NCBI GenBank assembly: GCA_003990765.1
Contig: RBNJ01000009.1
Span: 1-64,000 of the forward strand
DNA from: Jimgerdemannia flammicorona
Lineage: Eukaryota
Direction of reading: 5' to 3'
DNA: 64,000 nucleotides
The translations under genes were made by a program, and so were the position numbers. The stretch's first letter is position 1. Each line of letters opens with the position of its first letter. Under the pieces are notes generated by a model. It ran no database searches, was not told the origin of the DNA, and saw nothing but the letters and a program-made list of their open reading frames with translations. This document shows, piece by piece, positions 1-53,100 of this stretch.

Positions 1-59
1 TTTTTAGTCTTAATCTATCAGATATAATTACATTCTCCCTACCCACTACCCAATCCCCT

Positions 60-3000: not shown

Positions 3001-3635
3001 CTCAACAGACTCCAGTGATCAGATCATGGACACCACTCAACCTCTAGTGACCTCCAAACATCCACCCCCCAGCAGTCTGCCATCAGCATCCAGTCAATCC
3101 TTATATACAGCCCATTTGCCCAGTGCATGTATACTCTCTGATCTCTCCAGAAACCCCTTCCAGTATCCCCCAGAGCACTCTGCCTCTCTACTTCCTCCCA
3201 TTTCTCCAACCCCTCACTCCTGTCTGCAGTCTCTTGCCCTCTGTCAGTTCTATCCACCAATGCCTCCCAGACCATATTAAAGTTCCCTCTAAGAATATCT
3301 ACTCCAGTCTCTACAAGATTCCAACTCTCCAGGAGTCCCTTCACTCAATTCACTCTCTCACCATATATAGCAGGGCAGTAACAAGACCTCACCATAACTA
3401 GCTCCCAGCCAGGTTGAATCCACTTTCCCCAGACCAGCCTGTCTCCCCAGCTCCTTGTATCCTATATCTCCCCTCTGCCTCTCTGGACCAGGATCCCAAT
3501 CTTACCCTTCCAAACTACCACACCTCCCTATTCTGTCATCTATTTCAGTCTGTCTAAGTCATATTTACATCTATGCCTAACTGAACCCCACAGCCCATTT
3601 ACATTCAAAGAGAAAATATTAGTTGTACTATTCAT
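60..3635 (-). pseudogene. LINE ORF2 (APE endonuclease + reverse transcriptase + degenerate C-terminal Cys motif)
   Basis: Motifs listed for copy A, plus GNFN (GDFN-like) and SDH endonuclease motifs near 3280 and 3020. The 3' end is approximate. Confidence 0.88.
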
Positions 3636-3666
3636 AGAAGATAATATTCTAAGTTATATATATCCT

Positions 3667-5674: not shown

Positions 5675-5759
5675 GTTACTAGTATCATTTCTCCAAAAAC
5701 TGTGTCATGAGTGTTGTCAGAGAGTTCTATAACCTGAATATTACTGGAGAAAGATGGTT

Positions 5760-6966
5760 TTTGGCATGGCTTGAACCCCCAGTTACTTGTCAAAAAAAGC
5801 AACAAAATGTTCTAAAATTCCTTGTTGGTCCTTGGTGTTTCGTGGTATAATAGTCAATCTGGATGCAATAGTTGATTTCGTTATTGGGACGGGTTCTTGG
5901 GTATGAGCAGTGATTTGTATGTAGCGCAAGCAGTCTGGCAATTTAGCGGTTTCCTTATACGATTACTGCGTGACGATCTCTGACGATCTCTGTGTGACGA
6001 TCTTGTGAGCGGTATTCCTTATGCGGATTTCTCAAAAATGGTGGGTGGCTCGGTTTGGCATGGATTCTCCTGAATCGGCGTGCTTCTTGAATAATAACTT
6101 GGTTGGCATGGATAACTTGATAACTCAGATAACTCGGATGACTCGAAAATGGCAGATGATTCGGATTCTTCCCGAATCGACGGACTTCTGGGAAATAATT
6201 CAGATGGTGGATAATTCAAGAGCTCGGATGCGGATTCTTGGCAAGTTACATCAAGACTGGCTTTGTTTGCATCATAGACTGGCTCCACTGTGAAGTTGTA
6301 TCAGATAGACTGGCTTGTGGCAAGGTTCCTTAAGGCAGACTCTCTGGGAATAGTGGATAACTTGAATAATAACTTGGATTCTTCAGGCTTATCTGGCAAG
6401 CAAACCAAAACATAGCTAACTCTTCTTTGTATCAGAAAGTGAACTGGAGTAGAAATGGCAAAGCTCACAATCTCCTAGTAGTGGTTGTAGAGCAGGCATT
6501 TCTCCTAAGTATTGCAATCCAATTCCTTTAGGATCAAGTGGCTTTTGGCAGGTATACCCCTTGAAGTGTAGTAGGCAGACTTGTCTTTTGCTTTGGATTC
6601 AATTTCAGACTCTTCTTTGTATTGGAAAGTGAACTGAAGTTGAAATGTGTTCTGAATTTCAGACTGAGGTTTATTCACTCTCATCTCTGGGGTATTTTAT
6701 ATAGTTGTGGTTACTATCTGGTTACTACATTGCTGATTTTAGATTGCCATCTATGGCAAGTATTCCTGGGTAGTACAGTGTACTGGACCAGTACAGTGTA
6801 CTGGCTTGGTACAGTGTACTGGACCAGAACAGGTAAACATACTTTTTCTGGATCTCTGGCTAATTATACAGGTTGGCACAGTAAAGCAGTCTTGGTTGCT
6901 TAGTGCACCAGATATGGTATGTGGCCAATTTATGATTTCGGCAGTACAATTCTGCTGCTCGTCACA
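5760..6966 (-). mobile_element. LTR of family A (probably solo), with internal tandem repeats
   Basis: Homologous to 10451-11206 and to the reverse complement of 15164-15920. Ends in GTCACA. Shares the GAGGTTTATTCAC...GGGTATTTTATA block with the Gypsy LTRs. An 18-bp unit AGTACAGTGTACTGGACC occurs about 3 times at 6771-6826. Confidence 0.65.
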
Positions 6967-18771: not shown

Positions 18772-19250
18772 TGATTTGATTGATTGTGGTGGCTTTTACG
18801 TTCAAGGATTCTTGGTGCACAATATTTATTTACCCAACCTAATGAACCATGTTTCAAGCTAAGAATGATATTTTTATCATATCCTTTCATATGCCAAATA
18901 TATGGACTGGAAATTGGTTTCCGTAACATCTTATTATTTTGGCGTTAGAGTCAATGTTTGACGCATCCAAACAAAAACGCATCCAGATATGTCTTTTGAC
19001 GAATATTCATGTTAAAAAAAATGTCTTTTCTTTCCCAAGAGGGTGGGAATTAGGCGATTTCGTATTTGTAAAGTGCCAAGGTCAATCCTCAAAGATGGGA
19101 CAGGCCAGTCCCAACTACAGTTGAAAAACAGTTATCTGGCGTAAGCCATGAATGATCTTTGGGGATCAAAGTTTTTCCAGACATGTGACCTGAATATATT
19201 TCCCCTTTCTTAATTGGCTCTTGGTGCTATCTCACTTCCAATCGGTCCAA

Positions 19251-19961
19251 ATGACACAACTTGCTCAAAAGTCTGCCTACCGTGGCCTTGACAGCTTCCC
19301 GAACGAGATCCTTGTCAAGGTCCTTGTCCTCGTCGGCCCCCACGACATCCTGCAGGCCGCACTGGCGTATCGTCGCATTGCTGAGTTCACACGGACCGAC
19401 TGGCTGTGGCAGCTGAAGCTCCTCGCGGACTTTCCCAGCGCCAACCCCGAACCCAGCGACACGTCCTACCTGAACGCCTATATCCGCCTCTCCTCTAAAA
19501 TATTCCTCGCGAGCTACCGGGCCAACGTCGCCTGGCTCAACAATCAACACTGGTCACGTATTCCCGATCTCTCGTCGCCGTATGGCCAGATTATCTGCCT
19601 GAGGTCGGTCCGGTGGATGTCGGCTAATGGCGAGTTCCGCAACGTGCGTGTCGGCCATTATGAGGTTGTTTGGCGGCTCAAGGTTGTGGGAAGAGGACAC
19701 CATACGTTGTGCAGGACATGTTTAAGTTACGAAGTCATTGACGGGAATGTGTTTTTGGAGGAGCAACCCGGCGTCGGATTCTGGAACACGTTGAAGGAAG
19801 GCGAATGGACCGAGTACAGGTTCTCACAGCCTTTAATTATTACCGATTCCGATGCTGGGAAGACCGTCAAGTGCCTCATACGGGACATTGGTCATTACAT
19901 CAAGAACGGACTGTGTTTGGACTGGGTACAGATGGAGCGCGTCGGGTCGAAGTGTCAATGA
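19251..19961 (+). CDS. F-box protein with C-terminal PP2/Nictaba-like (phloem protein 2) domain, 236 aa
   Basis: F-box LDSFPNEILVKVL...DWLW. C-terminal pattern VAWLNNQHW / LRSVRWM / YEVVWRLKV / GEWTEY / KNGLCLDWV resembles the PP2 consensus. Uninterrupted ORF with normal CpG content. Confidence 0.8.
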   Translation: MTQLAQKSAYRGLDSFPNEILVKVLVLVGPHDILQAALAYRRIAEFTRTDWLWQLKLLADFPSANPEPSDTSYLNAYIRLSSKIFLASYRANVAWLNNQHWSRIPDLSSPYGQIICLRSVRWMSANGEFRNVRVGHYEVVWRLKVVGRGHHTLCRTCLSYEVIDGNVFLEEQPGVGFWNTLKEGEWTEYRFSQPLIITDSDAGKTVKCLIRDIGHYIKNGLCLDWVQMERVGSKCQ

Positions 19962-24924: not shown

Positions 24925-25770
24925 TATAGTTATTTTGTATTTACTACTTAGTTATATTATATTATATTATATTATATTACATTCTTATATATTATCTCAT
25001 TGAGTAGAAGTATTAAAATGTCTAAAGTCTATCACAATTATATTAAGTTATATTATTTTACACTTATCTGTTTGAAAGTAATAGCTATATATTTATGATC
25101 TTTTTTAGATTATTTCTGAGAATGTATTTAATTATACTAAATAATAATATGATATATCAATCTAGTATTATCTAAAAACTATAGTAGAAGATATTAAGTT
25201 CTGTAATTACCAAATATAGTTTTATTGGAAATAAGATAATATGACTATTAAATAATACTATATAATGTAATGTTGTGGATGCTTACTCTTGAAAGTACAT
25301 CGGATTTCTGTATCTTGAATACTTGATCTTCTCTGACTCCTCAGAGTCCTTGGGATGCAGGGGTGGGTGAGTTCGAAGTGTATCTGCCTGCAGGCTTACT
25401 AGTTCCTTTGTTTTCTCTTTACTTTGAACTATTTCGATCTGAGGTTTATTCACTTGAAGATACTGGGTTATTTATACAAGTTTGCTAGCTATAAGGTGGC
25501 TAAGTAGTGAGTCATTCTGCAAGTATCGGATCTTTCAACATCTGCTAGGATTTTGCTGATTGCAAACATTCTAACATCTCCTAAATCTTTGCAAACGTTA
25601 AAGTTTCGGCACTTTGCAGAATATTACTGCTATTTATGTGGCTAAACTATATTGGGAATCGGATTCAGGTACCGTGATCAAATGTCTAATTCTCCTGTTT
25701 CATGTTACTAATTCGGATCAACTGTCACATCTTCCTCCTGAATAGGTGATTCATCCTTGGAGCATCCTAT

Positions 25771-26232
25771 TCACTTGAACTCCCAGGCTTCTACGATTTG
25801 TATCTCCTTGTACTGTGCAATTTGTGCTATTATGTTCTTCCAGTGTTGCCTCTTGACATATCCAAACTCTCCTGGGGTTACTTCTCGGAAGTGGGCTAAG
25901 GCTGCTTCGTCATCCTTGAATAACTTATGTACTCTTTTTGCAATCGTAATTTGAATGTAAGAGAGCTGACATTCCTTGATCCAGTCTTCTTTTCCCATCT
26001 TTGGCCTTGAATTCAGTAGCTGTCCCAACTTGAAGTATTCCTGAAACTCAGTTCAGTTCTGGTAGGCCTTGAAATGTGAGATTCGTGATAAGTGCATCTG
26101 CACTATACTCTGGATGCTGTCGAAGGATTCCTCTATCATTGGTGGCTCAGTGGAACACCACTGTCTTTCTATAGCTCGCTAGGCTGTGCTAGTGATCTTG
26201 AGGGCAGCAGCATTACTTCATTGACTGGTCAT
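25771..26232 (-). pseudogene. Extra ORF3 of the Gypsy element, 153 aa, unknown function
   Basis: 462 nt here and 462 nt in copy 2 (50675-51136), with conserved translation. Internal stops are explained by C>T/G>A changes. Confidence 0.7.
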
Positions 26233-27415
26233 GATACTTCTTGATTCGGTTTCAGTGAATGGTAGTAGAGATGATTGTACCTGAGAGTTTTCGTAGCCAA
26301 AAGGTGGTCCCTTTTATATCTTGCACAAGGTAAGGTCCTTCCCACTTAGGCTCCAGCTTTCGTGACCATGAAGCTTCTACCATATTCCAATACACCAGGA
26401 CTTTGTCTCCTATCTTGATAATCTCCAGGGACTTGTGAGTCTTTTCTGCAATATTCTGTTGTAATGTCTGTGCCTTGTTTATGTAATCCTCAGCCTTCTT
26501 CCTTATTTGGTGCAATTTCCGTATCTCTGTGTCCACTCATTTCCATACAGCATCTCCATTGGACGATAGGGTTCCTTGAGAACTTTCTTCTCCAAACAGC
26601 ATTTCTCGAGGGGTGAAGTGGGTACTTTGTGATCTGATATCCCAGAGAGCAGATAATGCTATTGGCAGATAGTGATACCAGTTTTCATAGTTATCACAGA
26701 TCTTGGCAATAACATTCTTGAGGGTCTTGTTGGTCCTTTCTGCTTGTCCATTTCCTTGAGGGTGATAGGCTGTAGTCCAAATGTGCTGGATCTTGTATTT
26801 CTTGTAGAGAACCTCAAAGAACTGGTTCACGAATTCTGTTCCTCTGTCTGTAGTTACTTACATTGGGGTCTTGAACCGGCAGATGATTTCTTTGTAGAAG
26901 AAATCGGCAATTGACTGTGCATTGGCTTCCTTGAGGGGTCCTGCTTCTATCCACTTCGTAAAGAGGTCTACGATGACAATGATATATCGGTTGCTGGTCA
27001 AGGTCAGGGGTAGGGGGCCGATTACATCCATTGCTATGTGGGCAAATGGTATCGGTTCTATATGTGCTGATCCCGGGGCTTGGTTCCATTGGTCTTGTTT
27101 TTGTTTCTGGCATTTGTCACACGTTTTGACAAATTGTCTGATATCTTCCTCCATTCCTGGCCTCCATATTATTCTTCTCGCTTTATCGTATGTATTGGTT
27201 CCTCCTAGATGGCCGAGTTCATGTACTGATTTCATTGCTTGCTCCTTCTTGTATTCTGGTATGACTAGTAGTTTTCCTTTCCTCAGTGTTTCTCCATCGG
27301 TTTCAAATTGTTTCCATGTCCGGTTGATAATCATTTGTATCCATTCTTCCAGATGTTGGGGCATCTTTCGCTATCCCAGATATGTGATGATTCCGTAGTA
27401 GAGCTCCTTATTCAT
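26213..27415 (-). pseudogene. Gypsy integrase as a separate ORF (HHCC, DDE, GPY/F; no chromodomain)
   Basis: HELGH...CDKC, IAMDVIGP, TDRGTEF, GQAERTN, WEGPY. Own ATG at 27415 in a different frame from RT/RH. Confidence 0.9.
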
Positions 27416-30400
27416 AATTGATTTGTTGGTTGGGGGTGTTTCAGGGTGTCCGTGAGAGAGCATCTGCATTGGAATTTGTTCTTCCAGGGCAGTGTACAAT
27501 GGTTACATCATAGGCTTGTAACTTCATTATCCATCTGGCATAGATTCCTTTGGGTTGTCCAGTTGTCAGTAGCCAGATGAGAGCTGAGTGGTCTGTCTGA
27601 ATGGTGAAGTGTCTTCTGGCCAGATAGTAGTGGAACTTTTCCACAGCCCAGATGACTGTGAGACATTCCAACTTGTAGGATTTGTATTCTTTTTCAGCTC
27701 CTCGGGTTCCGCAACTAAGATATGCAATGACATACTCCTTTTTGTCTTTCTTTTGAGCTAGGACTGCTCCTAGTCCCTGTGCACTTGCATCAGTCTGTAG
27801 GATGAATTCTTGAGTCCAATTGGGTCGTCTGAGGATGGGTGCCTGGGTCAGTCTGACCTTGAGTTCGTCAAATGCTTTTTGTTGTCTGCCAGTCCACTGG
27901 AACTTGATGTCCTTCTTGTTGAGTTCGTAGATTGGACCTGCGATGTTGGAAAATCCTCTGATAAATCTACAATAGTAGGATGCAAGTCCCATGAAGGCTT
28001 GGGCTTCCATCACAGTGGTGGGCCTTGGGTATGCCGCTACTGCTTGTATCTTGAGGGGGTCTGTGTGTGTTCCATCTCGATTGATAATGTGGCCAAGGTA
28101 GGAGATTTCGATTTCTGCAAACTTGCATTTCTTGGGCTTGATGTACAGGCCATGCTTTCTCAGACTTTCCATTATCTGCTGTATGTACTGTAGATGTTCC
28201 TCAGGTGTCTTGCTGTAGATGATTACATCGTCCACATAAACCATCATCCATCTTCCCATGTTATGGCGGAAGATTTTGTTCATCATTTGCTGGAAGCTTG
28301 CTGGTGCATTGCACATCCCAAATGGCATTCGCAGGTAGATGTAGGTTCTATCTGGGGTTATGAAGGCTGACTTTTCACTTGCCATTTCTGTGAGTCCGAT
28401 TTGGTGGAATCCTGAGTATAAGTCCAATGTGCTGTAGTACTGTGCTTCATCTCCCAGTGTTATAAGGATGTCGCTGATGAGGGGCAGTGGTTGGCGATCC
28501 TTCTTGGTAACTGTGTTAAGCTTTCTGTAGTTGACACAGAGTCTTGGGGCAAATTCTCCAGGCTTGCTTCCTTTTTTCGGGGCTAGTACAACTGGTGAAG
28601 ACCAAGGGCTACTGGCTTCTTTGATAATACCAGCTTCTTCCATCTGCTTGATTTCTTCTCTGAGCCATTCCCGGTAGGCTGGCGGGACAGGTCTTGCTTT
28701 TTGGTAAATTGGTTCAGTGTCTCCAGTATCTACCTCATGATAGTACTGTGGTGTTTTTCCTTTGATATCCTTGAAGTCTGTGGCAAGGACATCCTTGAAT
28801 TCATGGAGTATTTCCTTGAGTTCCTCCTTGAGTGGGAATTCGTTTCCAATGGTGTAGCCATGCTTGTTTGTGGTTTCCTCCTTCTTATGCTCCAGTTCAG
28901 TGATCTTGGTACTGGCGAATACTCCTTTTCCTGTGGATCCGAATCCTTTCTTTCCTCTTTTTGTTTCCTCCAACTTCTTGACTTCTATGATCTTTGGTTG
29001 TCGGACTGGGAAGATCAACATCTGTGCCAGTCGGTCCTTCTTCTTGATTGGGAATGGAATAGTAGGATTGTGATTCCTAGCAATGAGTAGTATTTCTCCA
29101 ATATAGTCTGAATCAATGACTCCTCCTTCAATCGTAATTTCACTTCTTGCTAAACTGCTTCTTGTCTTGAGGATCCTGACATGATCCTTTGGGATGGTCA
29201 TCTCCAGGCCGGTTGCAAGTAGAGTAGTTGTCTGGGGTTCAAGTACAGTTTTCTCCACTGTGGCGATATCCATTCCAGCTGCATTTTCCGATTTGTATTC
29301 TGGCAGGACTGCATCAGGGTGAATCTTCCAGATTTTGACCTTGATTTCTTCTTCATCATCACTGTCTTCCAGGAGGGCTGGTGGTTCGTCATCTTCCTCC
29401 TCCTCCTCTTTGGCTTGCTCCTTGAGAGTCTTTTCTCTTCTTTGGTGGTAGATTTCCTTGATTTTGCTGGTGCACTGGTAGCACTCATTGACATGCTCCA
29501 TACAGTACATTCGAATCCCATGTGGACAGACTCCTTGTGGTGCATATCCTTCTGCGATCTTCTTGCACCATTCTTCTTCACTCATCCATCCGACTTTCTT
29601 CTTCTTTTTCTGTGTGGTCACCATGTAAGCTTCTACTTACTCATCTTCCTCTATCTCGGCGAGCACTCCTTTGTTGACATTGATGGGAATTCGCATCTTC
29701 TGACCTCAGTAGATAATCTGCATCTTCTGAGCATTCAGGTTGATTATTGCTCTGGCTTTGTGAAGCCACTGGTTGCCAATAAGAATGTCATAGTTGGTTG
29801 CATTGGTTACTATCACATCCACTGGAATAGTTGCTCCTCCAAACTTGATGGGAATATCTCTGATTTTTCCCAAAGGGGTGGCTCTTATACTGTCTGCTGT
29901 GACAAACACCAACTTGGTTGCTTCTTTGACCTCCCATCCCAGGTGGTCTACTGCCTTCTTGCTGAGGAGGCATCCTCCTGCTCCTGTATCTATGATGGCT
30001 TCAAAGATTCTGTCTTTGATTTGGCAGGTTGCATAGGCGGAAGTCTTGCAGTTGTCTTCACTTTCTTCTCCAGAATCTTCTTGAACATTGTTGGCTTCAG
30101 TTATCTTCCAACCCTGCTCCTTGGTTGTTTCGGCAAGTCCAAATCTCATTTCCTGTCTAAACATAGGAATTTCTGTGAGCTGGCTGAAGGTTGCATTGAC
30201 TTTTTGTTGGCTGAGATCCTTGAAGATATCATACTTGAAGGTCTTGGTTTTGCAAAGCTTCTTCTCCTTTTCTCCTTCGCTAGCTGGAGTAGTTCCTTGG
30301 ATGATATCTTGAACTGCTTGTTCAAGCTCTATATCTTGATCCATTTCTTCAGCTTGGCTTTCCATGGCCATTTCCATCTGTTTTTCCACCAGGTTTTTCT

Positions 30401-31391
30401 TGGGTCTTCCTGGTGGTCTCTTGTAGGGTTCCTTGCGAACATCCTTCTTGGTAGTCTGTGCAGGGTAGGCCTCCTATTCTTCGTCTGACTCTCCAATTTC
30501 CTTGAAGGTGATGATGTTGGCCTGTTCCTTGTTTTTAGTAGCATTTCTCAGCTGGGCCTTGCGCTTAGTTTCACTCATACATTCATATGAGTAGTGGCCT
30601 TCTTCTCCACAGCTATAGTAGGTACCTTTCTTCTTGTCTGAGGTAGTGGCAAACTTCTGAATCAGGCGGTGATCTCTTCCTCTAATTTCTTTTACTACAT
30701 CCCCTAGGTGAGCAGTCATTTCAGCGAACTGCTTGGCAAGCTCCTCCATGGGGTCGCTGTTTCTCTGCTGCTCTGTAGCTCTCATTTGGGGTGTGTTTCG
30801 ATTGATCATTGTGGTGGGGATCACACTGGTTGCCTTGGGTGCTTCGATTCTAACTCCAGTGACTCTTTCCATTGTGTGGTCTTGTGGATGTCTGGCTATC
30901 CAATACCGTTGAGCATAGGTGACCTTCTGTGGCAGATCCAGAATTACTGGTGATGAGCAAATAGCCATAGCTATCTCTGGGTGGACTCCTTTCATGAAGC
31001 TTGCTTCAGCTACTTGATCTCGGATAGCATCAGCATAATCTGCAAGGATTATCTGATATCGGATTCGGGTGTAGAATGTGTTTGGATCCTCGCTCATTTC
31101 TTGGCATATTGTATTGAGCTAATCCTTCAGGGCTTGCTTAATCTCCTCTTTATAGTAGGTATTTTGAAGCCAGGTCTTCTGTGCTGTCAGTATGGCATCA
31201 GCATCATTTCCTGCATGGGTTGCAGCTGTGAATGCTGCTCTAGCAGGACCTCATAGGCTGAAGGGCATGAGGGCTACTTGCTGTGCTGCTGTCAGGGTTC
31301 TTACAGCGGCGTACTGCTCGAAATCATTGATGAAAGTGATGATTGATTCATCTGAGGTATATCCATGGAATACTGGTGGTCTCATATCCAT
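27408..31391 (-). pseudogene. Gag-protease-dUTPase-RT-RNase H polyprotein (single frame, scattered stops)
   Basis: MDMRPPVFHG start, Zn knuckle CGEEGHYSYEC, protease IDTGA, dUTPase motifs, RT MPFGM and YVDD, RNase H TDAS and ADALSR. All fragments are in one frame. Confidence 0.92.
28929..29345 (-). CDS. Trimeric-type dUTPase domain within the Gypsy polyprotein
   Basis: Five motifs in order: AGMD, RSSLA, GVIDSDYIGEI, DRLAQ, RGKKGFGSTG. Confidence 0.95.
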
Positions 31392-31973
31392 TTTGTCTTG
31401 GTTTCTTGCCTCAGTTTGTATGGTTGTTCAGGTGGTGGTGGTTGTTCATTGTTCAGCTTAAAAGTGAGGGATTCATCTTGAATCACCAGCCAATGGGCAC
31501 CAAGTTGTAACGTAGCAGATGCTTACTCTTGAAAGTACGTTGGATTTCTGTATCTTGAATACTTGATCTTCTCTGACTCCTCAGAGTCCTTGGGATGCAG
31601 GGGTGGGTGAGTTTGAAGTGTATCTGCCTGCAGACTTACTAGTTCCTTTACTTTCTCTTTGCTTTGAAATATTTCGATCTGAGGTTTATTCACCTGAAGA
31701 TACTGGGTTATTTATACAAGTTTGCTAGCTATAAGGTAGCTAAGTAGTGAGTCATTCTGCAAGTATCGGATCTTTCAACATCTGCTAGGATTTCACTGAT
31801 TGCAAACATTCTAACATCTCCTAAATCTTTGCAAACGTTAAAGTTTCTGCACTTTGCAGAATATGACTGCTATTTATATGGCTAAACTATATTGGGAATC
31901 GGATTCAGGTACCATGATCAAATGTCTAATTCCCCTGTTTCATGTTACTAATTCAGATCAACCATCACAATAA

Positions 31974-35134: not shown

Positions 35135-38100
35135 CAACTCCTTTCTCCAGTAATATTCAGGTTACACAACCTTTTGGCAACACTCATAACACAGTTTTTA
35201 GAGAGAAGAGTCTAGTAACATAGTGACCAATATATGTTCTGAGGTGTGTATTAGGCAGGGTGGCCCTAGCATGTTCGACTGGCAGTATGTGGAGAGGGGC
35301 CCTGGCTTGGGGGAGAGTATGAGAGGTCTGCTGACAGGAGGATGTAAATAGGGAGGGAGCAGAGTCAGAGGGCAGGGGACAGGGAGGGTAAGTTTTATAG
35401 ATGTGATGAAGGGAGGACAGCTATTGTCTGGGCTGAAGGGCTGGCTGAGGAAGGATAAGAAGATGGTAAAGATGACTGGGCATGAGGGAGTCGCCCTTGG
35501 CATTAGAGGCAGTAGAGCTTGGAGTATAGTGACTGAGATGAGTATAATGGCTGATGATGATGAGACTGCTAATCTGGAAAAAAATCCAGATGTGACTGCT
35601 GATGGTAGGACTGAGAGGATGGGGCTTGGATGGATGGAGAATCTGGCAGATGGTGTAATAGGTCTGGCAGTGGCCCTGTTACTCAAGAAGTCAATCTTGG
35701 AGTTCACAGTTACTTTGTACTTTAAGGGCTTGGTAGTGATGGCAAAAATAATACTGGGGCTAATTGTAAAGCAGATGGCTGGAGCTGTATCTATGAAGTT
35801 CCTGAAGAGATTGGAAGAAGTGGAGGTTGGCTTTAAGGAGGCTAAGTTATTAGAGGAAGCACTGAAGACTGGGCTGACTGTTGGAGAGGTGTGTGTTCTG
35901 ATAGCATATTGCTTGAGGTGGGACCCCAGGGTGGTATAGTTACTGATGAAAGGGGTGCCTATGATGACTACTGAGGAGATGAGGAGGAGAGTCAAGGAAG
36001 TCATGGCCAAATATAGAGAGGTGGTTGATGTTAGGTTCTGGGTCTGAGAGGGGACCTCATTCTGGACTGGGGATATTGATATTAGGATTCAGTTGGCAGA
36101 GAAGAAAGCTACTGAGAAGGCTAGAGACTGGCCTTCAGTGATGATTTGGGGGGCCTTCTTGTACAAGGTGATGAGGGTGAAGGAGAATGAGGAGAAGGAA
36201 GAGGATTTGTTAGAGGTATTGAAGGAGCTAAGTAGTGCTGTGAAGTGGAGAGCAAAGGCTTGGAAGGCATATATTGAGTTGATACATTTGGAAGTGGTGA
36301 ATGGAAAGAGGATTCCTGTGGATAAGGGGCTGTGGGAAAGGTTCCAAAGATGCAAGAGACAGAGAGAACTGTTGGTGAACCTAGAGAGTAGGGCAAAGAA
36401 GAATACTGGTGGTATTGAAATTATGGTGGGAGCTAAGGAGAGTATCTGGGCTGATGAAGATGGAGAGAATGCAGAGAAGGGGCCAGAAGTGAACAAGGAG
36501 GTGACTGGGTATGACTCTTATACAGATGGTACTTTTGAGGTCTGGAAAGACTTCTTAACCCCTATGTCTCTTATTAGGTATGGTCCAGCTTCAAGGGGTA
36601 GGGTGGCAGAGGATGTATCTATGTGGGGAGCCAGCAAGTATATTTTGGAGTTCCTGAGGTAGTGAAGGGGGGGCAGATAGTGGTAGCTGGTGAGGATGAA
36701 CTGATGGATGTCTAAGAGGAAGAGTGGGATGAGGCTGTGAGCATAGGAGCTGATATCTCAATACTGGATAGAGAGAGACCAGCAACTTCTGGAGGGAAGG
36801 AGGTGGGAAACCTTCTATGGATATGCAAGATGATGAACAACTTTGCAGTGGAGGAGCTGGGGAAGGTGGACCTGCAAGTAATGAGTGAAGAGCATTGGGT
36901 GCAGATTCTGCAGGGCAAGAGAGTGGTGGAGGCACTGAAGGTGGAGATTCTTGCAGTTTTTCTAGAGGAGAAAGAGTATGAGGTTGATAAGGAGAGAGAG
37001 GCTGAGCTGGCAGTTGCTGCTAGTGAGTAGGCTGCTTTCTGTTGGGTAGAGTGGCATGGGTTGCAGCTCTAGCAGGAGGTCTACCTGGAATATTATAAGG
37101 ATTTTGAGGAGAAGAAGGATGGAGAGCTTGCAGAACTTCTGGTTGGATTAGAGGCTAAGAGGCCTGAAGAGGAGGAGGTGGCTGCTGACCACAATCTAGA
37201 CTTAGCTCAGGAGGAGATGAATATGGAGCAGTAGAGAATATATCTATTATTTCACATTATTTCTTATGAATAGTACAACCAACATTTTTTCTCTAAATAT
37301 AAATGAGTTATGGGGTTTGTTTTGATAATGGAACATTTTTCCTTAGCTAAAGGGTTTGGAGGCTGATCTCTTTCTTTTGCAGGATGTCAGATGTGAGGAT
37401 GATTTGGATAAACTGGAATAGATAACCAAATGGGAAGGGGAGGTAGTTTGGAAGGGCAAGGTTGGGATTCTGGTTCAGAGGGGCAGAGGGGAGGTATGAG
37501 ATATGTGGAACTAGAGAGACAGGCTGGTTTGGGGAGAGTGGATATTTACTGGGTGAGAGCCAGTTATAGTGAGATCCTGCTACTGTTCTGCTATGTGAGA
37601 TGAACATATAGAGTGGGTGAAGGGTCTCCAGGAGGGAGGGGCCCTGGCAGAGGCTGGAGTGGATGTGCTTGGCAGGGACTTTAATATGGTCAGAGATGTA
37701 CTGTTGGATAGAACTGATGGAGGGCAGGGGGCAGAGGGTAGGAGTAGAGGTCTGGAGGAGTGAGAGGAGGTGGAGCAGCTGAGTGCTTTGTTGGATGCTG
37801 GTAGGGGGTTTTGGGGTTACAGGAGGGTATATATATATTGAGTAAGTGGCTTGGAGATAAGGATTGACTGGATTTTGACAGTAAACTACTGGGGCCTGGT
37901 TGTTTAAAGGTCACTGGAGACTGAATGGTGTCCATGGTCTGATCATTGGAAATTGCTGAGACAGGACCATTTTGGGGAGAGTGGAGATGGACAGAGACAT
38001 TGGTACCTCAACTTCTCTTTGTTAGACAATAAGGTGCTGTAGGATAGGTAGGCTGAGGATATTTAACAGAGAGTGGAGGGGTGGATACAAAAATGTGCCC

Positions 38101-40997
38101 CTGTTGGAGTTAGGTGAATGAGGTTGAAGGAGGCTGCTAGGGTCTATTGGAGGAAAGCTGGCAAGGTGGCTGGTAGACTGAGAAGAAAGAGGATATTGTG
38201 GGCTTCTGCTAGACTGATGAGGCTGTTGGAAGATTGGACAGATCTGTTGGCCCTAGAGAGGGTGGAGGACTGGAGATTGTTATAGGTAAAAAAGGAGGTT
38301 GTTGAGTTGCAACAGGTATTGCAGGAGGAGGAGGAAGTGCAGGTGCAGAGTTTGGCAGCAAGACTATGTTGGCAGGGGCTGGAGAAAGGGAAGAGGCCCT
38401 CTAAGTTTCTCATGAGGGCCCTTTAGATGAGGAGAGTTCAGTAGAGGTGGGAGGGGGTGCTTGATTCTGAGGGACTATTGGTGCATGGTATACAAGACAT
38501 TCTCAGGTCATTGAAGAAGAGGTGGAGTGGTTTGTAGAGTAAGGAGGAGGGTGGGGCTGATGCTACCACCATTGATCTTGCCTTGGAGGATTGGTACTCA
38601 CTACAGGCAGAAGGACTAAGTGACTTGGTGTTGTTGGTGCAGGAGGAGAAGATTTACCAGATTCATGCCACAACTATACTGGGTACAGCACCAGAGGTAG
38701 ATGGTCTGCCCTGAGATTTCTGGAAGAAGATAGTGGGTGTCCCCAGTATACTGGAAGAGTTGAGGGCAATTTGTGACTTAGTACTACAGTCTGGGAGATG
38801 GGTAGGTGAGCAGGATCTGGGGCTGGTGGTACTGTTGTATAAGAACATGGGCAGGAGAGAGGACTGGAAGAACTGGAGGCTGATCATGCTACTGGACATA
38901 GACAGAAAGTTGTTTACTAAGGTGGTGGTAGTGAGGCTGCAGAAGATGGCCCAACAGGTCTTAGGGGAGGAGCAGTGGGGCTTTGTTGGGGGCTGGCTCA
39001 TTCAGGATGGCACTACTTGGGTATACAGCATTATTGAAGGGGCACAAGCCTGTGGACTGGATGGATATCTGGTTTTCTTAGATCAGGAAAAGGCATATGA
39101 CCATGTTCAGAGGATTTGGATGGCAAAGGTACTTGATCAGATTGGCATCTCTCAACAGTTCTGAGTGGTAATGATCAGCCTACTGGAAGGGAGCAGAGCT
39201 GTACTCATGTGTAATAGGCATTGAGGGATGGCTTTTCTGCTGGGTAGAAGTATTCTTCAGGGAGACCCACTGTCCCTCATTCTGTATGTACTCTCCTTGG
39301 AGCCTTTAATGGATAGAATTTGGTGAAGGATAGGAGGGATTTCAGTATTTAGCATTGAGTGGAACGTTGGTATCTTTGTGGATGATATGATAGTTGGCCT
39401 GGGTTCAATTGTTGATATAGAGGTACTCAAGGAGACTATGGAGTGATATGAGGTACACTCTGGGACTAAACTCAATTAGCACAAGTGTAAAACAATGATG
39501 CTAGGTAATGGCCTAGTGGGGAGAGATGTCATCAGAACAATTGTCCCAGCTAGGGAGGCAGTGAGGTACTTGGGCATCTATCTTCCAGTATATGGGTCAG
39601 TTTTACTAAAACTCTGATGGGAGCAGCAGGTTGTTATCTGGGGAGAGGCCCTATAGAGTTAGGGAGACTGCCACTTGTCTCTGGTGGGGCATGTTTCCAT
39701 CTTGAATGTTTACTGGCTGCCAAAGTTGTGATATTTGGCTTATCAACTGAACTTCCCAGCCTAGATGATGAAGAGACTGCTGAAACTGGCCAAGGGGTGG
39801 ATTTGGACTGAGAGGAGGAGTCAGATTAGCTGGGAAATCTTATCTTTACCAGTGACTAGAGGGGGACTTGGGCTGGTTGACTTTCTGAAGAGGTTGTATT
39901 ACTTGAGAGCATGGTGGCTGAAGAGAGCTATAGAGCTGAGGGGCAGCAGCTGAGTTCCTCTGATGAAGAAGGTCCAGGAGATGACGTTCTCACCAAGAGG
40001 CTCTACTGGAGATCTACTGGCCTTAGTTGGGCTTCAGAACATTGGATATATGCAGTTTAAGAGCTTCTGGTGGAGAGTTACAGATGGGGTACATCACATT
40101 GACATCTGTTGGCAGAGAGATAAGGGAGAGATACCTTGAGGCCCAACAATGTGGAGATGGGACCAAGTGTTACTGGGGGACATTCTTCTCAGTGACTTCA
40201 ATATTGGTGATGGGGTTGAGTATCAGAGGGGATTGGGGCAGGATCTGTGGCTCAGCAGATAATAGTTAGTGGGTATCAGAGAAGAGTAAGACTAGAATAG
40301 GGTCTGGGCCTGGAGTGATAGCTGCTACTGAAGTATTAAGTAGTATGATAGTATATATTGAGGAGGAATGTTATGCTCAACTTCCACTTGGGCCACCTTG
40401 TGGAAGAGAGAAACTTTGACTGTAAGAAGTGCTATAATGTTAGACAGGAAGGAGGTTTTGTGCAGATTGGCTAGGGGAGTATAAGGTACTTAGTGACTTC
40501 TGGATAGTAGTTGAGAAGCTACTGGGTATCATGCAGAGGAGAGATGGTATGAGAGGTCAGTGGGAGGATTTGAAGGATAGATTGATGAGAGGAGTTGAGA
40601 AGGAGTGGCTTATTTTAGGTTGGGTTCTAGCTGTATGGGTGGAGTTGGCAGGTCACTGGTTGTTTGTTTTTGAGGAAGAGAAATGTCTGGGCTTGAGAGT
40701 ATAACTGCTGCAATGAGAAGGGTTGATGGTGGACACTCTGATGGGCTGGTGGCTTGGTTGGGATCTGCAGAGTGATCAGTAGTATCAGTTGGTTGAGAGA
40801 ATCTATAGACAGAGTGGAGAGAGGGTTGGAGTAGTGGGGAATAGGGTGATTTTTAAGTATGAAGGAGTAAGGAGGAGGAGTTCCCCTATGGAGATTGTGT
40901 AGTGGGAGGAGATAATGTAATTTTATATATAGACTGATAATAAATAGCAGAGTCTTAGTAACTATAAAAAAAAACAAAAAACAAAAAACAAAAAAGA
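35135..40997 (+). mobile_element. Full-length L1/Tx1-like LINE (copy B); ORF1 ~35219-37234, ORF2 from ATG 37266
   Basis: MNSTTNIFSLN start, DQEKAYD, QGDPLS, FVDD, A-rich tail 40966-40995. 13-bp TSD AGTTAAGAAGAGT at 35122-35134 and 40998-41010. Confidence 0.95.
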
Positions 40998-41249: not shown

Positions 41250-44200
41250 GTCACTTGAACATCCTTTATTACTAAGTAATATATAGAGAGAAATATAATG
41301 CAATATACTATCCAACCCTGCTCACTACCCAATCTCCCTAGGAGGAACTTCCCCAATCCTTACTTATTTGAATACTACTCATCCTACAATTACCTCCATC
41401 TGACCCCTACTCTGCTGGTAGACCCTATTAATGAGCCAGTAATGGCAGCTACCCTAAGATCCCCAGCCCACCCACCAGTCAGTTAAGATATCCTCCATCA
41501 ACCTATCTCATCTCAATAATCTCTCAGCAAGACTCAACTACTACCTTTCCTCAAATATAAATAGCCAATGCTCAGCTAGCTCTATCTAAATTATTAAGGT
41601 CTAGCTATATATAAGTCACTCATTCTCCACTCCTCCTATAAGCTATATCTTCAAGTCCTCCCAACAGCCCCCCACCACCTCTCTCCTCCTCTGAACCCTC
41701 AGACACTCTTCTATAGTAATCCAAAAATATCCCAGCACCTCACACTCCCCTAGCCAATGTTCTGGCATCTGTACAAAATCTTCTTCCTGCTCTACATTAA
41801 GATAAACCTTACACTCAAACTTCCCACCCTCAATTAAATATCTTGAGCAGAAGTTCAGCATGATATTCCTCACCACTATACTACTTATAACTTAAGGGGA
41901 AGCCACCACTTGACTATAGCACTCCAGGACCAAACTTTAGTCCAGTCTCACTCTTTACCTATGCCAACACTCTGCCAACCCACTGGCCACATATTCAGCC
42001 ACATCTCCCACTGACATCCAACTCATTCTCAATATCAAATTTAATAAGAGAAGAGCCCCCAAGCAGGAGTCTATCTTAATGCCACATTATAGCCTCCAAA
42101 GTATCTTTCTCTCATCACCTTACTACTATAGTCCAATGTGATGTACCCCTATAGCAATCCTCCATCAGAATCCTCTGAAGTGCAATCTCCCACTGCTCTG
42201 CAGGCCTACCAATGATAGAAGATCTCCTATAGAGCCCCTCAGAGAAACCCTCATCTCCTATATCTTCTGCATCAAAGAGACCCAGCTATCTCCTTATAGT
42301 TCTACAGCTCTCCTCAATCACCAGGCCCTCAAACAATGAAGCTTCTTCAGAAAATCCACTAAATCAAGACCCTCTCAATTCACTGGAAGTGTCAGGGTAC
42401 TCCAGTCGATCTGACTTCAATGCTCTACCCAGATCCAATCCTTAGCTATCTTCAATAGCCACCACACCACTCAAGGAGGAAAATCTGAGTAGTAGGCCAA
42501 GCATCATATCTTCAGCAGCCAGTAGATATTCAGAATAGACACTCTATTAGCCAGAGAGATGTAGTGCCCTCTTTAGTCCCAAAACACCTCACTCTAACTT
42601 GAGACCTTGCTCTCCTATCAGGCTCTGGTCAGAACAGATCCATATCCCCTCTCTACCATTCTATTCCCTAGCACCATTGTCTCACACTTATATCAATTAA
42701 ACTATACTCCAGAATATATCTCATACTACTCTATCATCTCCTTCAAGACCTCTATATCTATTACAGAGCTAAGTCTCACTACCATATTATCTGCAAAGAC
42801 TCCCATCTTCTAAATAACTCTGAACACTGATAACTCTACCACTCTCTGCTATATCCTATCAATAAGAAGCTCTAAAGAGAGAGTATAAAAGATAAGTAAT
42901 AGTAGATCTTCTTGAGGAATTCCTCTTCCTAGAGTGAAGGTCACTTCTCTATATCTATTGTACAAAATTGCTACCTTGCTACCTTTCAGTAGACTGACTA
43001 TTGAAATCCAGAATTGTCATAGGACCTTAATACTGTCTAACACTCTACCCAGCCAGACATACCTCACCTGATCATAGGCTTTTTCCTGATCCAAAAAGAC
43101 TAGTCTCCCATCCAGTCTACTTATCCTTATCTCCTCAATGATACCATGTACTCATACAGTATCATCATGAATGAGTCAGCCCCCAACAAAGTCATGCTGC
43201 TCTTCATCCAGTACCTGTTAGACCATATACTATAATTGTACCATGATCACCTTGATAACCAACTTTCTATCTATATCCAGGAGTATGATTGGCTGCCAAT
43301 TCTTCTAATCTTCTCTATTGTCCTTGTTTTTATAAGTAAGATTACCAAGCCAAGATCCTGCTTGCCAACCCACCTTCCTGTTAACAGAACATAATTACAC
43401 AATACTACCATTTTGCTAAATATACTAGAGATCCCTACCATTCATTTCCAGAAATCCCAAGAGAGTCCACTTTCACCAAGAGTTATATCAGACTTAGTAG
43501 TAGAGATGATCTGCTGAATCTCCCCCTCCTGAACTGACTAAGATAGCTACTCAATACCATCTACTAGAGGTGGGTTCCAGTCCTCCAGAGCATGCTCAAT
43601 GTCTACAGCATCAGCACTCTCATCCTCCTCACTTCATAAATCACTCCATCATTCTTTGAGAGAGCTAAGGATCTGCTGTATGCCATAAACAAGTACACTC
43701 TCTGAATCAATCATGCCATCCCATCTCTGCTTTGTCTGCCTGGCCTGAATCAGCCTAGAAAGGTATCTAGAGGGCCTCTCTTCCTTCTCCATCTCCTGTC
43801 ACTATAACTGAGCAATCATTCCCTTTATACACATCTCCTCCTCCTCTCTCAAAACAGTTTGCAGCTCCACCACCTCCAATTTAACATATACTAACCTCTA
43901 ATCATCAATTGTCTCTAAGCTCAGCAACTTGGCCCAAGTACCCTGCAGCTGGATAAGCCTGCTGGAGGCCCACCACACTCTCTCCCTCCTCTAGCTTCCT
44001 GCAGTCCAACCAGCCTCCTTCCAGTAAACCCTTGCCTTCTTCTTTAATTGCCCTCAATGAGCTTCTATAGGGAGGCTCTCACTAATCTAACTACTAATCA
44101 TCTACTAAATATCTACAGCTCACCTGTCCCATAGCTCTCTCTCTGATAGCAGAGAGGAGTTGAGGCACTAATATTCTGGTCCATCCCTACTCTCTCCAAA

Positions 44201-46990: not shown

Positions 46991-47039
46991 AAAAGTAGAT
47001 AATATATGTTTGCATAATATGAGATATATCAGAAAGAGA

Positions 47040-50147: not shown

Positions 50148-53100
50148 TGTAATGTAGTGGACACTTACTCTTAAAAGTATGTTAGATTTCTGTATCTTGA
50201 AAACTTAACTGTTCTGACTCTCGCAGAGTCCTTTGAGTTGCAGGGGAGGGTGGGTAAGTTCAAAGTGTATCTGCCTGCAGGCTTACTAGTTCCTTTGCTA
50301 TCTCTTTGCTTTGAACTATTTTGATCTAAGGCTTTATTCACTCTAAGATACTAGGTTATTTATACAAGTTTTGCTAGCTATGAGATGGCTAAGTTATGAC
50401 TATATTTCCTATAAGTCATTTCTTTCACAAGTATTAAATCCTTGACATCTATTAAATCTTTGACAATTGTCAAAGAGTTTAACATCTGTGAATAGTTTAA
50501 CATTCATGAAAACTTTAATGTTTGTGAAATGACTACTATCTGGGCTATACTATATTTGGGAATCAGATTCAGATACTGTGATCAAATGTCTTATTTCTCT
50601 GATTCATATTACTAATTCAGATCAACCATCACAACTTTCTCCTGAATGGATGATTTGTCCCTGAAATATTCTATTTACTCAAACTCTTATGCTTCTACGA
50701 TTTGTATCTCCTTGTACTGTACAATTTGTATCATTATATTCTCCCAATGATATCTTTTGATATATCTGAAATCTCCTGGGACTACTCCTCGAAAGTGGGC
50801 TAAGGCTGGTTTATCATCCTTGAACAACTTGTTGATTTATTTGTTAATCATGATCTGAGCATAGAAAAGCTAGCACTCTCTAATCCAGTCTTCTTTTCTC
50901 ATCTCTGACTGCAAATTCAGTAGTTGTCCCAGTTTGAAGTATTCCTGAAACTCAGTTTGGTTCTGGTAAGCTTTGAAGTGTGAAATTCATGACAGGTGTG
51001 TCTGGACTATACTCTGGATACTGTCAAAGGATTCCTCCATAACAGGCAGTTTGGTAGTGTACCATTGTCTTTTTATAGCTCGCTGTGTAGCACTAGTGAT
51101 CTTGAGAGCTGAGGCAGTACTTCTCTGGTTAGCCATAGTACCTCTTGAGTCAGTTTCAGTAAATAGTAGTGGGGATAATTGTGCCTAAGAGTTTTCATAG
51201 CCAAAAGGTGGTTCCTTTTATATCTTGCACAAGATAAGGTCCTTCCCACTTGGGCTCCAGTTTTCATGACTATGAAGCTTCTACTATATTCTGATATACC
51301 AGGATTTTGTCTCCTATCTTGATAATCTCCAAGAGTTTGTAGGTCTTTTCTGCATTCTTTCATTGTAGTATCTGTGCCTTGGTTATGTAATCTTTGGTCT
51401 TCTTCCTGATTTGGTATAGTCTCCATATTTTTCCATCTATATGTTTCCATATAGCATCTCCATTGGATGATAGGATTTCTCAAGAACTTTCTTCTCTGAA
51501 CAGTATCTCTTGAGAGATAAAGTGGGTACTTTGTGATCTGATATCCTGGAGAGCAGATAATGCTATTGGCAGATAGTGATCCCAGTTTTCATAGTTATTA
51601 CAGATCTTGGCAATAACATTCTTGAGGGTCTTATTAGTCCTTTCTGCTTATCTGTTTCCTTGAGAGTAATAGGCTGTGGTCTGAATGTACTGGATCTTGT
51701 ACTTCTTGTAGAGAACCTCAAAGAACTGGTTCATGAATTCTGTTCCTCTATCTGTAGTTACTTATATTGGGGTCTTGAACTAGCAGATGATTTCTTTGTA
51801 GAAAAAATTGGTGATTAACTATGCATTGGCTTCCTTGAGGGGTCCTGCTTCTATTCATTTTGTAAAAAGGTCTACAATAACAATGATATATTGGTTACCA
51901 GTCAAGGTCAAGAGTAGAGGACTAATTACATCCATTGCTATGTGGGTGAATGGTACTGGTTCTATGTGTGCTGATCCTAGGGTTTGGTTTTATTGATCTT
52001 GCTTCTGTTTCTGGCATTTGTTACAGGTTTTGACAAATTGTCTGATATCTTCCTCCATTCCTGGCCACCATATCATTCTTCTTGTCTTATCATATGTATT
52101 TGTTCCTTCTAGATGGCCAAGTTTATATACTGATTTCATTGCTTGCTCCTTCTTGTGTTCTGATATAACTAGTAGTTTTCCTTTCTTCAGTGTTTCTCTA
52201 TTGGTTTCGAATTGTTTCCATGTTCTGTTGATAATCTTTTGTATCTATTCTTTCAGATGTTGGGGCATCTTTTGCTGTCTCAGGTATGTGATGATTCTGT
52301 AGTAAAGTTCCTTATTCATGATCAATTTGTTGGTTGGCAGTATTTTGGGGTGTCCATGAGAGAGCATCTACATTGGAATTTGTTCTTCCAGGGTAGTACA
52401 CAATGGTTACATCATAGACTTGTAGCTTCATTATCCATCTGGTATAGATTTCTTTAGGTTGTCCAGTTGTAAGTAGCCAGGTGAGAGCTGAGTGGTCTGT
52501 CTGAATGGTGAAGTATCTTCTGGCCAGATAATAGTAGAACTTTTCCACAGCCTAGATAACTGCAAGATATTCCAACTTGTAAGATTTATATTCTTTTTCA
52601 GCTTCTTGAGTTCTGCAGCTAAGATATGCAATGATATACTCTTTTTTGTCTTTCTTTTAAACTAGGACTGCTCCTAGTCCCTGTGCACTTGCATCTGTCT
52701 GCAGAATGAATTCTTAAGTCCAATTGGGTCATCTGAGGATGGGTGCCTGGGTCAGTCTGATCTTGAGTTCATCAAATGCTTTTTATTATCTGCCAGCCTA
52801 CTGGAACTTGGTATCCTTCTTATTGAGTTCGTAAATTGGACCTGTGATATTAGAGAATTCTCTAATAAATCTGCAATAGTAGGAGACAAGTCCCATGAAG
52901 GCTTAGGCTTCTGTAACAGTGGTGAGCCTTGGGTATACTGCTACTGCTTATATCTTGAGGGGGTCTATGTGTGTTCCATCTCGATTGATAACATGGCCAA
53001 GGTAGGAGATATCAATTTCTGCAAACTTGCACTTCTTGGGTTTGATATAAAGGCCATATTGTCTTAGTCTCTCCATTATCTACCATATGTGCTGCAGATA

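Follow-up and report, generated by a model that had tools for sequence, protein, structure and literature searches.

An additional open reading frame under selection between integrase and the polypurine tract of a Ty3/gypsy retrotransposon lineage from Jimgerdemannia flammicorona

RESULTS

Two decayed elements carry the same third frame

We examined an additional open reading frame (ORF), here called ORF3, in a long terminal repeat (LTR) retrotransposon of Jimgerdemannia flammicorona. The DNA analyzed, which we call the window, is a 64,000-nt stretch (positions 1 to 64,000 of the forward strand of contig RBNJ01000009.1, assembly GCA_003990765.1), and it contains two copies of one Ty3/gypsy family, both on the minus strand. 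In both copies ORF3 lies between integrase (IN) and the polypurine tract (PPT), and translation recovered the 153-codon minus-strand frame that an initial annotation, made from the sequence letters, had placed in copy 1, together with the frame of equal length (462 nt) that it had placed in copy 2. We found that ORF3 is a genuine accessory gene under selection in this lineage and that both window copies of it are pseudogenes. The two copies being dead, the window itself holds no functional ORF3. The features of the two elements are as follows, with reverse transcriptase abbreviated RT and RNase H abbreviated RH.

25266-31969, minus strand: copy 1, whole element, from LTR to LTR
25266..25729, minus strand: 3' LTR of copy 1, 464 nt, TGTG...TTACA
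25730..25739, minus strand: PPT of copy 1, AGGAGGAAGA on the element strand, abutting the 3' LTR (from 25729)
25771..26232, minus strand: ORF3 of copy 1, 153 codons plus stop; pseudogene with in-frame stops at codons 5, 18 and 60; profile match E 2.5e-60
26213..27415, minus strand: integrase ORF of copy 1, with its own ATG inside ATGAATAA; Integrase_H2C2 and rve; broken by stops, including TGA at 26252-26254
27408..31391, minus strand: ORF1 of copy 1, with gag (CCHC), aspartic protease, dUTPase, RT and RH in one frame; interrupted by stops
31506..31969, minus strand: 5' LTR of copy 1, 464 nt, followed by a sequence like a primer-binding site (PBS), TGGTGCCCATTGGCTGG (TGGTGCC...)
About 50148-56890, minus strand: copy 2, whole element, with LTRs at about 50148-50633 and 56411-56890
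50675..51136, minus strand: ORF3 of copy 2, 153 codons plus stop; pseudogene with in-frame stops at codons 50, 89, 100 and 150; profile match E 1.1e-55
52319 (IN ATG) and 51129-51131 (IN stop, inside ATGGCTAA), minus strand: integrase of copy 2

Pfam domains followed the order zf-CCHC, aspartic protease, dUTPase, RVT_1 and RT_RNaseH, with Integrase_H2C2 and rve in a second frame. Direct LTRs, a PBS, a PPT and the order gag(CCHC)-protease-RT-RH-IN place the host element in the Metaviridae. Membership in the chromoviruses was considered and rejected on the criterion of a chromodomain at the integrase C-terminus, as Pfam gave no chromodomain match (E up to 1) in the IN read-through translation or in ORF3. 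Each window copy is a dead, CpG-depleted, transition-rich old insertion with nonsense mutations; the observed/expected CpG ratio is 0.31 in copy 1 and 0.04 in copy 2, which is heavily decayed, and the LTR pair of copy 1 is 95% identical over a matching 300-nt stretch.

The translation of ORF3 in copy 1 reads MTSQ-stop-SNAAALKITSTA-stop-RAIERQW...EAWEFK-stop, with three internal stops in all. The initial annotation had excerpted this frame with the correct sequence, but two of the three stops appeared in it as dots and the broken state of both copies went unmentioned. All seven stops in the two copies fall at codons that specify Arg, Gln or Trp in other copies. The stop codon of ORF3 in copy 1 (25771-25773) lies 31 nt upstream of the PPT. 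A six-frame profile scan of the whole window found ORF3-like sequence only at these two copies, the next best domain having an E value of 1.6.

ORF3 has evolved under constraint comparable to that on gag and pol

Our DNA-level tests covered three copies of ORF3: those of window copies 1 and 2 and that of an element in a 6479-nt metagenome contig, L001. This contig carries a near-intact element of the same layout: gag to RNase H form one frame of 1258 aa, the IN frame is interrupted between 5076 and 5425, and ORF3 (5795-6256) is open; its read-through translations contain one stop each in gag (633-1892) and IN (4612-5835).

Copies 1 and 2 differ at 109 of the 462 nt of ORF3, with 33, 20 and 56 differences at codon positions 1, 2 and 3, respectively. 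The ratio of nonsynonymous to synonymous substitution rates (dN/dS) between them was 0.11 in frame versus 0.94 and 1.17 in the other two frames, so the description of these differences in the initial annotation as synonymous in type was correct. Across all three pairs of DNA copies, dN/dS ranged from 0.089 to 0.112 in frame and from 0.87 to 1.90 in the other two frames. Constraint on ORF3 is thus on par with that on the gag, RT and IN of the same elements, for which dN/dS spans 0.06 to 0.26 (gag, 0.08-0.11; dUTPase-RT-RH, 0.06-0.21; IN, 0.10-0.26). Because of heavy C-to-T mutation in the host, we also counted transversions alone, and these too fell mostly at third positions (7/3/24, 12/3/25 and 7/2/11 at codon positions 1/2/3 in the three pairs).

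There were no indels within ORF3 in any of the three copies. Relative to L001, copy 1 has no indels and copy 2 has one over the span from dUTPase through ORF3, and the relations among the reading frames are therefore ancestral. A dN/dS near 1 with frame-breaking indels, which the initial annotation had named as evidence that would count against a conserved gene, was looked for and was not found. Its proposal of a novel accessory gene held up, given an in-frame dN/dS of about 0.1, intact homologues and the lack of a match to a known family. Its further proposals, tricistronic translation and a targeting, anti-silencing or translation factor as product, are at the level of conjecture.

ORF3 and its homologues form an unnamed family of two or more subfamilies

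A word-indexed search with the read-through translation of ORF3 returned 10 database proteins with E values from 1e-28 to 1e-63, and judging by these values the frame is far beyond chance. Cluster look-ups in public metagenome and genome protein sets provided three stop-free, full-length 153-aa homologues (P0003, P0015 and P0019). At the DNA level, no further loci with ORF3 were found in viral contigs or in prokaryote genome contigs, and metagenome contigs yielded L001 alone.

We built a profile of 16 homologues and searched it against 1.84 billion representative sequences, which gave five proteins at E<=0.001, including the 165-aa protein P0022 at 1.6e-4. A search seeded with P0022 returned 26 proteins, to which cluster look-ups added more. 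These form a second subfamily of 164-169 aa, with 15 full-length members by listed lengths. Identity between subfamilies 1 and 2 is 18-25%, and an hhalign comparison of the two (probability of 97.3%, E of 2e-11, 108 columns) shows that they are homologous. Both have an N-terminal helix, the motifs IEE[SH], EFQxY...G..LN and TIAxR[IV]YxLF.D..AL.H..G, and an acidic, Trp-bearing C-terminus. In subfamily 1 this C-terminus is EAWEFE, and in subfamily 2 it is a tail of 35-39 residues (...EGEYPPFIDFG..LW...ELDEWD[LV]).

Source records label the proteins "hypothetical protein" or leave them nameless, and no homologue longer than 169 aa or with a known domain was found in the family searches. On these sequence grounds, we regard ORF3 as representing an unnamed family with at least two subfamilies, a new protein family in the known niche of additional ORFs. 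The two subfamily alignments provide a profile by which such ORFs can be recognized in genome annotation.

The ORF3 product is predicted to be a small, soluble, helical protein

The ORF3 product of a working element is predicted to be soluble, all-alpha and about 17 kDa. The initial annotation had noted that ORF3 does not look like env and has no transmembrane stretch, and this was confirmed by hydropathy: the maximum 19-residue Kyte-Doolittle mean was 0.19-0.74 in the seven intact homologues examined, all without a transmembrane stretch by this measure, no dedicated predictor having been run. The isoelectric points of subfamily 1 span 5.7-8.8 and those of subfamily 2 span 4.7-5.0, and the net charge of the tail is -2 to -4 in subfamily 1 (last 23 residues) and -12 to -14 in subfamily 2 (last 35-39 residues).

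With 16 close sequences, AlphaFold2 reached a predicted local distance difference test score (pLDDT) of 52. With 47 sequences, the best model had a pLDDT of 74, a predicted template modeling score of 0.68 and eight helices, and all AlphaFold2 models were helical only. In the best model, a helix at residues 81-88 is followed by a turn and a helix at 92-105 that carries the invariant Arg100, Leu104 and Phe105. This stretch resembles a helix-turn-helix in the model, a likeness that is suggestive only; no helix-turn-helix family was matched above threshold. The Pfam family HTH_Tnp_Mu_2 gave a weak match in 2 of 25 members (best E of 0.031), and a TetR regulator appeared at Z 5.2 among many unrelated helical rows in the VIA-align comparison described below.

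Searches for relatives in sequence databases were negative. Pfam contained no family for P0001 and P0002 (E up to 1) and gave sub-threshold matches alone among the 25 members (E up to 5), PHROGs had no family for any of four proteins, the best E value in a PDB sequence search was 0.27, and the ESM Atlas gave no usable match. The initial annotation had called for a fold search on a predicted structure. Run with Foldseek, it gave nothing in the PDB at E <= 0.001, and the best hit in BFVD had an E value of 0.04 and a TM score of 0.22. VIA-align against 48,161 chains gave a best Z of 6.4, with a root mean square deviation of 4.2 over 64 residues, to a designed helical protein, and against Foldseek's top 998 chains it gave a best Z of 5.8; by the tool's own calibration, Z values of 5.8-6.4 are within chance for helical models.

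We also considered that ORF3 might be a known integrase C-terminal domain read through in intact copies, which the initial annotation had listed as a finding that would undo its proposal. This candidate was rejected: there was no Pfam match, hhalign against the element's own IN gave a probability of 0.25%, and, as weak evidence by the search tool's own note, no fused form occurred among 67 candidates. The hhalign comparison with the element's own gag likewise found no homology. The sole piece of ORF3 that aligned with gag was a 10-residue acidic-Trp stretch (EEQEEWEAYP; residues 298-307 of the L001 gag). In copy 1, the gag motif lies in the linker between the CCHC knuckle and the protease, and it resembles EAWEFE and DEWDL. 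The likeness might reflect a shared short linear motif, or chance.

A conserved ATG that overlaps the end of integrase is the probable start of ORF3

The element is laid out as gag-protease-dUTPase-RT-RH, IN and ORF3, with a +1 shift of frame from each ORF to the next. Such a three-ORF layout with AUG-NN-UAA overlaps had been proposed in the initial annotation, and it recurs in the independent, near-intact L001. The RH/IN junction, ATGAATAA, is AUG-N2-UAA in all three copies. At the IN/ORF3 junction, copy 2 has ATGGCTAA (ATG-N2-stop), in which the ORF3 ATG overlaps an integrase stop 5 nt past its A, as had been read from the sequence originally; copy 1 has ATG-N14-TAA, with the ATG in the identical position and an IN-frame TAA that follows four codons further on, again as first described; and L001 has ATG-N38-TAG. 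In all three copies, 1183 nt separate the IN ATG from the ORF3 ATG.

Several features favor this ATG as a start codon. It is kept in all three copies while the overlapping IN codons vary (YHG, YHD and YYG), it has an A at -3 in all three, and it has no in-frame ATG before it, the frame being open for a further 13-27 codons upstream. Given that the IN tail past the ORF3 ATG is unconserved and the N-terminus of ORF3 is conserved, initiation at the ATG is to be preferred over a frameshift at the IN stop. Upstream of the ORF3 ATG, all frames are free of ATG for 151, 137 or 62 nt, compared with about 2.2 ATG per 100 nt in the element as a whole; the 62-nt case is copy 2, whose upstream ATG sits where L001 and copy 1 have ACG.

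Coupled termination-reinitiation usually takes the form AUGNxUGA with x = 2, 5, 8 or 14, and when start and stop lie further apart, the restart codon always comes before the stop (PMC5972666; papers given by PMC number are cited throughout from excerpts). SART1 and LINE-1 are named there as retrotransposon cases, and in fungal victoriviruses and a hypovirus the junction is AUGA or UAAUG with an upstream pseudoknot (PMC6631646). At both junctions of our element, the candidate restart AUG lies close to and before the stop of the upstream ORF, as in such reinitiation cassettes. We infer, as our preferred explanation of this geometry, that ORF3 is made by termination-reinitiation.

Upstream of the junction is one further conserved feature.

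26310..26361, minus strand: conserved block within the GPY/F region of integrase, about 52 nt long and 78-129 nt before the ORF3 AUG; equivalent to L001 5666-5717

The block is near-invariant even at synonymous sites, with a three-way identity of at least 0.9 in 30-nt windows against an average of 0.66. It holds a purine run (AAGTGGGAAGGA) and a UGGGA that in each of the three copies precedes the ORF3 AUG by 108-112 nt and corresponds to the Trp-Glu codons of integrase WEGPY. It could be a restart-promoting element, an internal PPT or a splice signal, and its meaning is ambiguous because the block also encodes the WEGPY motif. At the RH/IN junction, a hairpin was seen in copies 1 and 2 only (z of -2.6 and -2.0; +1.9 in L001).

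DISCUSSION

What ORF3 may do and how it may be expressed

Few extra genes of LTR retrotransposons have an assigned role, and most of the characterized ones are env-like or enzymatic. ORF3 appears as a compact, soluble, strongly selected family without detectable relatives, in a lineage with a separate integrase ORF and chained start/stop overlaps. The explanation that we favor is that it is an accessory gene of a dUTPase-bearing, chromodomain-less Ty3/gypsy lineage, translated by reinitiation at its own AUG and encoding a non-enzymatic adaptor or regulator; taken as a whole, we consider this somewhat probable. The ORF3 protein would start at its own AUG. Most likely, ribosomes would finish the integrase ORF at its stop, between a few and about 40 nt past this AUG, and then reinitiate, a process that would yield small amounts of ORF3 relative to Gag-Pol. 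The helical core of the protein would dock onto a component of the element or onto nucleic acid, leaving the acidic aromatic tail to bring in a host factor, in the manner of a transcriptional activator or trafficking adaptor. Because there is no enzymatic signature and because of the conserved helical core, the acidic aromatic C-terminus and a position like that of retroviral regulatory genes, we read the protein as an adaptor or regulator, and we hold this part with low confidence.

In a bolder version, two reinitiations in a row would let the lineage translate three genes from a single genomic RNA, a polycistronic strategy like that of caulimoviruses or victoriviruses, with ORF3 acting in trans, either as a reinitiation helper like the transactivator (TAV) of caulimoviruses or as an LTR transactivator through its acidic Trp tail. 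We consider this version quite improbable.

Several observations weigh against the explanation that we favor. The integrase stop is not fixed: downstream of the A of the ORF3 ATG, it comes after 5 nt in copy 2, 17 nt in copy 1 and 41 nt in L001, such that the equality of the 8-nt geometry with that of the RH/IN junction, as claimed in the initial annotation, is true of copy 2 and fails for the other two DNA copies. Both window copies have an IN-frame TGA seven codons before the ORF3 ATG, where L001 has CGA. Restart of the victorivirus type needs an upstream element of the hairpin kind, and no conserved stable hairpin was found in the 88 nt ending just past the ORF3 AUG (z of +0.47, +1.91 and -0.09 versus shuffles, in a test that leaves pseudoknots outside its scope). 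AlphaFold2 was confident in only one of five models, the other four having pLDDT values of 44-55, and fold and family searches yielded no handle on function. DNA binding is not favored, as the protein is not basic. The tail of the subfamily in the window is short and weakly acidic, and an adaptor or activator role would lean on subfamily 2, which is known from proteins alone.

How the alternatives compare

ORF3 could instead be expressed from a spliced subgenomic mRNA, as are retroviral env and accessory genes and some plant env-like additional ORFs (aORFs), in which case the stop/start overlap would be incidental packing. Splicing is the usual route for the ORF3s of LTR elements (PMC5408684; PMC7264820), and an acceptor-like CTCAG/G or CTTAG/G lies 49 nt upstream of the ORF3 AUG in all three copies with no AUG between; a donor-like GTAAGC occurs near the U5 end in both window copies, and an AUG-free leader of 137-151 nt would suit a scanning ribosome. 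Splice-like hexamers are, however, common by chance; at the U5 site of L001 the only donor is weak (GTTTAG), and a canonical CTRAY branch point was not seen by eye. Splicing would also leave unexplained the AUG-NN-UAA overlap that recurs at RH/IN in all three copies, and we consider it a credible but rather unlikely alternative. Less likely still is a programmed +1 frameshift, at the IN stop or close by, that would fuse ORF3 to integrase, for example as a targeting module replacing the missing chromodomain. Shifts of the +1 kind are known to be stimulated when a stop codon occupies the A site, as in antizyme and RF2. The frame relations are of the right sense (ORF3 is +1 relative to IN, as IN is to RT-RH), the ORF3 frame is open for 13-27 codons before its ATG, and the integrase is without a chromodomain. 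A shift at the IN stop of L001 would, however, skip the first 14 residues of ORF3, which are conserved across subfamily 1, and the ATG is conserved where the overlapping IN codons change. No aligned homologue extends before the shared first Met (the shorter ones start at an internal Met or are cut by a contig end), no known +1 heptamer was identified, and no longer, fused form occurred among the 67 candidates, which the search tool's own note treats as weak evidence.

Two further alternatives would deny ORF3 a role as a gene of the element. LTR elements do take up host sequence (PMC7264820), and the 3' part of the element (IN end, ORF3 and LTR) has a similarity history between copies 1 and 2 that differs from that of RT/IN, such that ORF3 could be a transduced or recently captured fragment of a host gene with no part in the life cycle. 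Yet it is present in all three elements at an ORF3 dS of about 1.2-1.8, under constraint as strong as that on gag and pol, and no homologue above 169 aa or bearing a known domain was found. We consider capture very improbable. Conservation might alternatively reflect a cis-acting nucleic acid element before the PPT, for example a signal for packaging or for plus-strand priming, in place of a protein; the ORF3 region adjoins the PPT, and a 30-nt block (L001 5974-6003) is 93% identical three ways. To this we give next to no credence: third-position periodicity is strong, dN/dS is below 0.2 in one of the three frames only, the overall three-way nucleotide identity of ORF3, 0.63-0.67, does not exceed that of other regions, and homology at the protein level extends to a subfamily at 18-25% identity.

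Mosaic structure and other features of the window

Identity between copies 1 and 2 is about 0.90 in RT, RH and most of IN, about 0.77 from the IN end through ORF3 to the LTR, and about 0.8 in gag, and dS is 0.32-0.34 in RT and IN versus 1.2 in ORF3. Given these differences between RT/IN and the IN end-ORF3-LTR part, the two copies are mosaics, produced probably by recombination between lineages, with a breakpoint near L001 position 5350-5400. On this pattern, ORF3 moves with the LTR-proximal module.

All three copies, including L001, have an in-frame TGA at gag codon 47 (...LLPVSL-stop-GPARTAF...), 46 codons past the gag ATG. The sites are 31251-31253 in copy 1, about 56156-56158 in copy 2 and 771-773 in L001, the window positions being computed from the gag ATG on the assumption of no indel. 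This TGA could be a parallel C-to-T change on one CGA codon or a conserved read-through stop. In the U3 of L001 (6380-6479), an 18-nt unit, GCAGATGTAGAGATCTTA, occurs at least four times in tandem and the contig ends inside a fifth copy, and the window LTRs have two to three dispersed AGATGT-containing motifs; both are possible enhancer repeats.

A third related element starts at 59074 on the plus strand. Over 17 nt, its gag start differs from that of copies 1 and 2 at one position, and the element is cut by the end of the window before IN/ORF3. GC skew is extreme in three parts of the window, at -0.39 to -0.49 in 1-6000, +0.39 to +0.52 in 36000-40000 and -0.36 to -0.49 in 42000-48000. The skewed stretches are partly repeats of one another, 70-75% identical (1142-5235 versus 42409-46521), no convincing ORF was seen in 1-6500, and they look like another decayed repeat family with strand-asymmetric composition. 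Between repeats, a 246-aa ORF at 19221-19961 on the plus strand begins with what by eye is an F-box-like start (FPNEILVKVLVLV...) and is probably a host gene.

Comparison with known systems

The nearest structural counterparts of ORF3 are the aORFs on the 3' side of pol in sense orientation (aORF-3S), including env-like ones (PMC7264820), and the ORF3s of bdelloid elements (PMC5408684). Like these, ORF3 follows pol/IN and precedes the PPT in sense orientation, and it is present in all copies of its lineage and not in one transduced copy. Unlike env-like aORFs, it has no transmembrane segment or signal peptide, as judged by hydropathy and with no dedicated predictor. Unlike the bdelloid and aORF-3S frames, it has no GDSL, DEDDy or other enzymatic domain, and its start overlaps the end of the integrase ORF in place of forming a separate following unit. 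Among fungal Gypsy elements, PosPlaTy3-5 has a dUTPase between protease and RT (PMC2864245), as do the elements in the window, and the same source marks an "add. ORF" of unassigned function that can be likened to ORF3 by its label, not by its sequence. The elements of PMC2864245 are described in its excerpts as chromoviruses, whereas the integrase in the window has no chromodomain match.

The junctions themselves resemble those of victoriviruses (AUGA/UAAUG), the hypovirus CHV1, caliciviruses and influenza B virus with their termination upstream ribosome-binding sites, pneumovirus M2 and SART1 (PMC5972666; PMC6631646), in that the candidate restart AUG comes just before the stop of a long upstream ORF. 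Our element has two AUG-Nx-stop junctions in series, with x = 2, 14 and 38 at IN/ORF3, and these fit the published AUGNx-stop formula (PMC5972666). Among retrotransposons, only non-LTR ones are named for reinitiation in the excerpts of PMC5972666, and neither these nor the excerpts of PMC6631646 describe a polycistronic reinitiation strategy for LTR retrotransposons. A literature search with a limited set of term combinations likewise found no account of an ORF3 protein or of an LTR retrotransposon with reinitiation-coupled IN/ORF3. Unlike in victorivirus-type systems, no conserved stable hairpin was found upstream of the ORF3 AUG.

Caulimoviruses can be likened to the ORF3 element in that both are reverse-transcribing, with chained ORFs and an accessory gene at the 3' end. 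The consecutive ORFs of caulimoviruses touch or overlap by a few nucleotides, with an accessory protein at the 3' end of the coding region. Their TAV is about 520 aa, compared with about 150 aa for ORF3. ORF3 matches no Pfam family and thus none of the ORF VI family. Caulimoviruses translate a polycistronic 35S RNA with TAV as reinitiation transactivator (PMC5972666). A translation role for ORF3 by analogy with TAV would be pure conjecture.

Another viral counterpart may be found among retroviruses. Tas/Bel1 of foamy viruses is a regulatory protein, encoded at the 3' end, with an activation domain. ORF3 is similar to it in being a small, apparently non-structural protein between pol/IN and the 3' LTR, and the subfamily 2 tail is acidic and aromatic/Leu-rich, of the activation-domain kind. 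It differs from Tas/Bel1 in that the two have no homology, ORF3 is not basic, and the subfamily in the window has only a 6-residue acidic end. An adaptor or transactivator role would make ORF3 a regulatory gene of retroviral style within a simple retrotransposon, and if it is expressed by reinitiation, a strategy of RNA viruses, pararetroviruses and non-LTR elements would extend to LTR retrotransposons.

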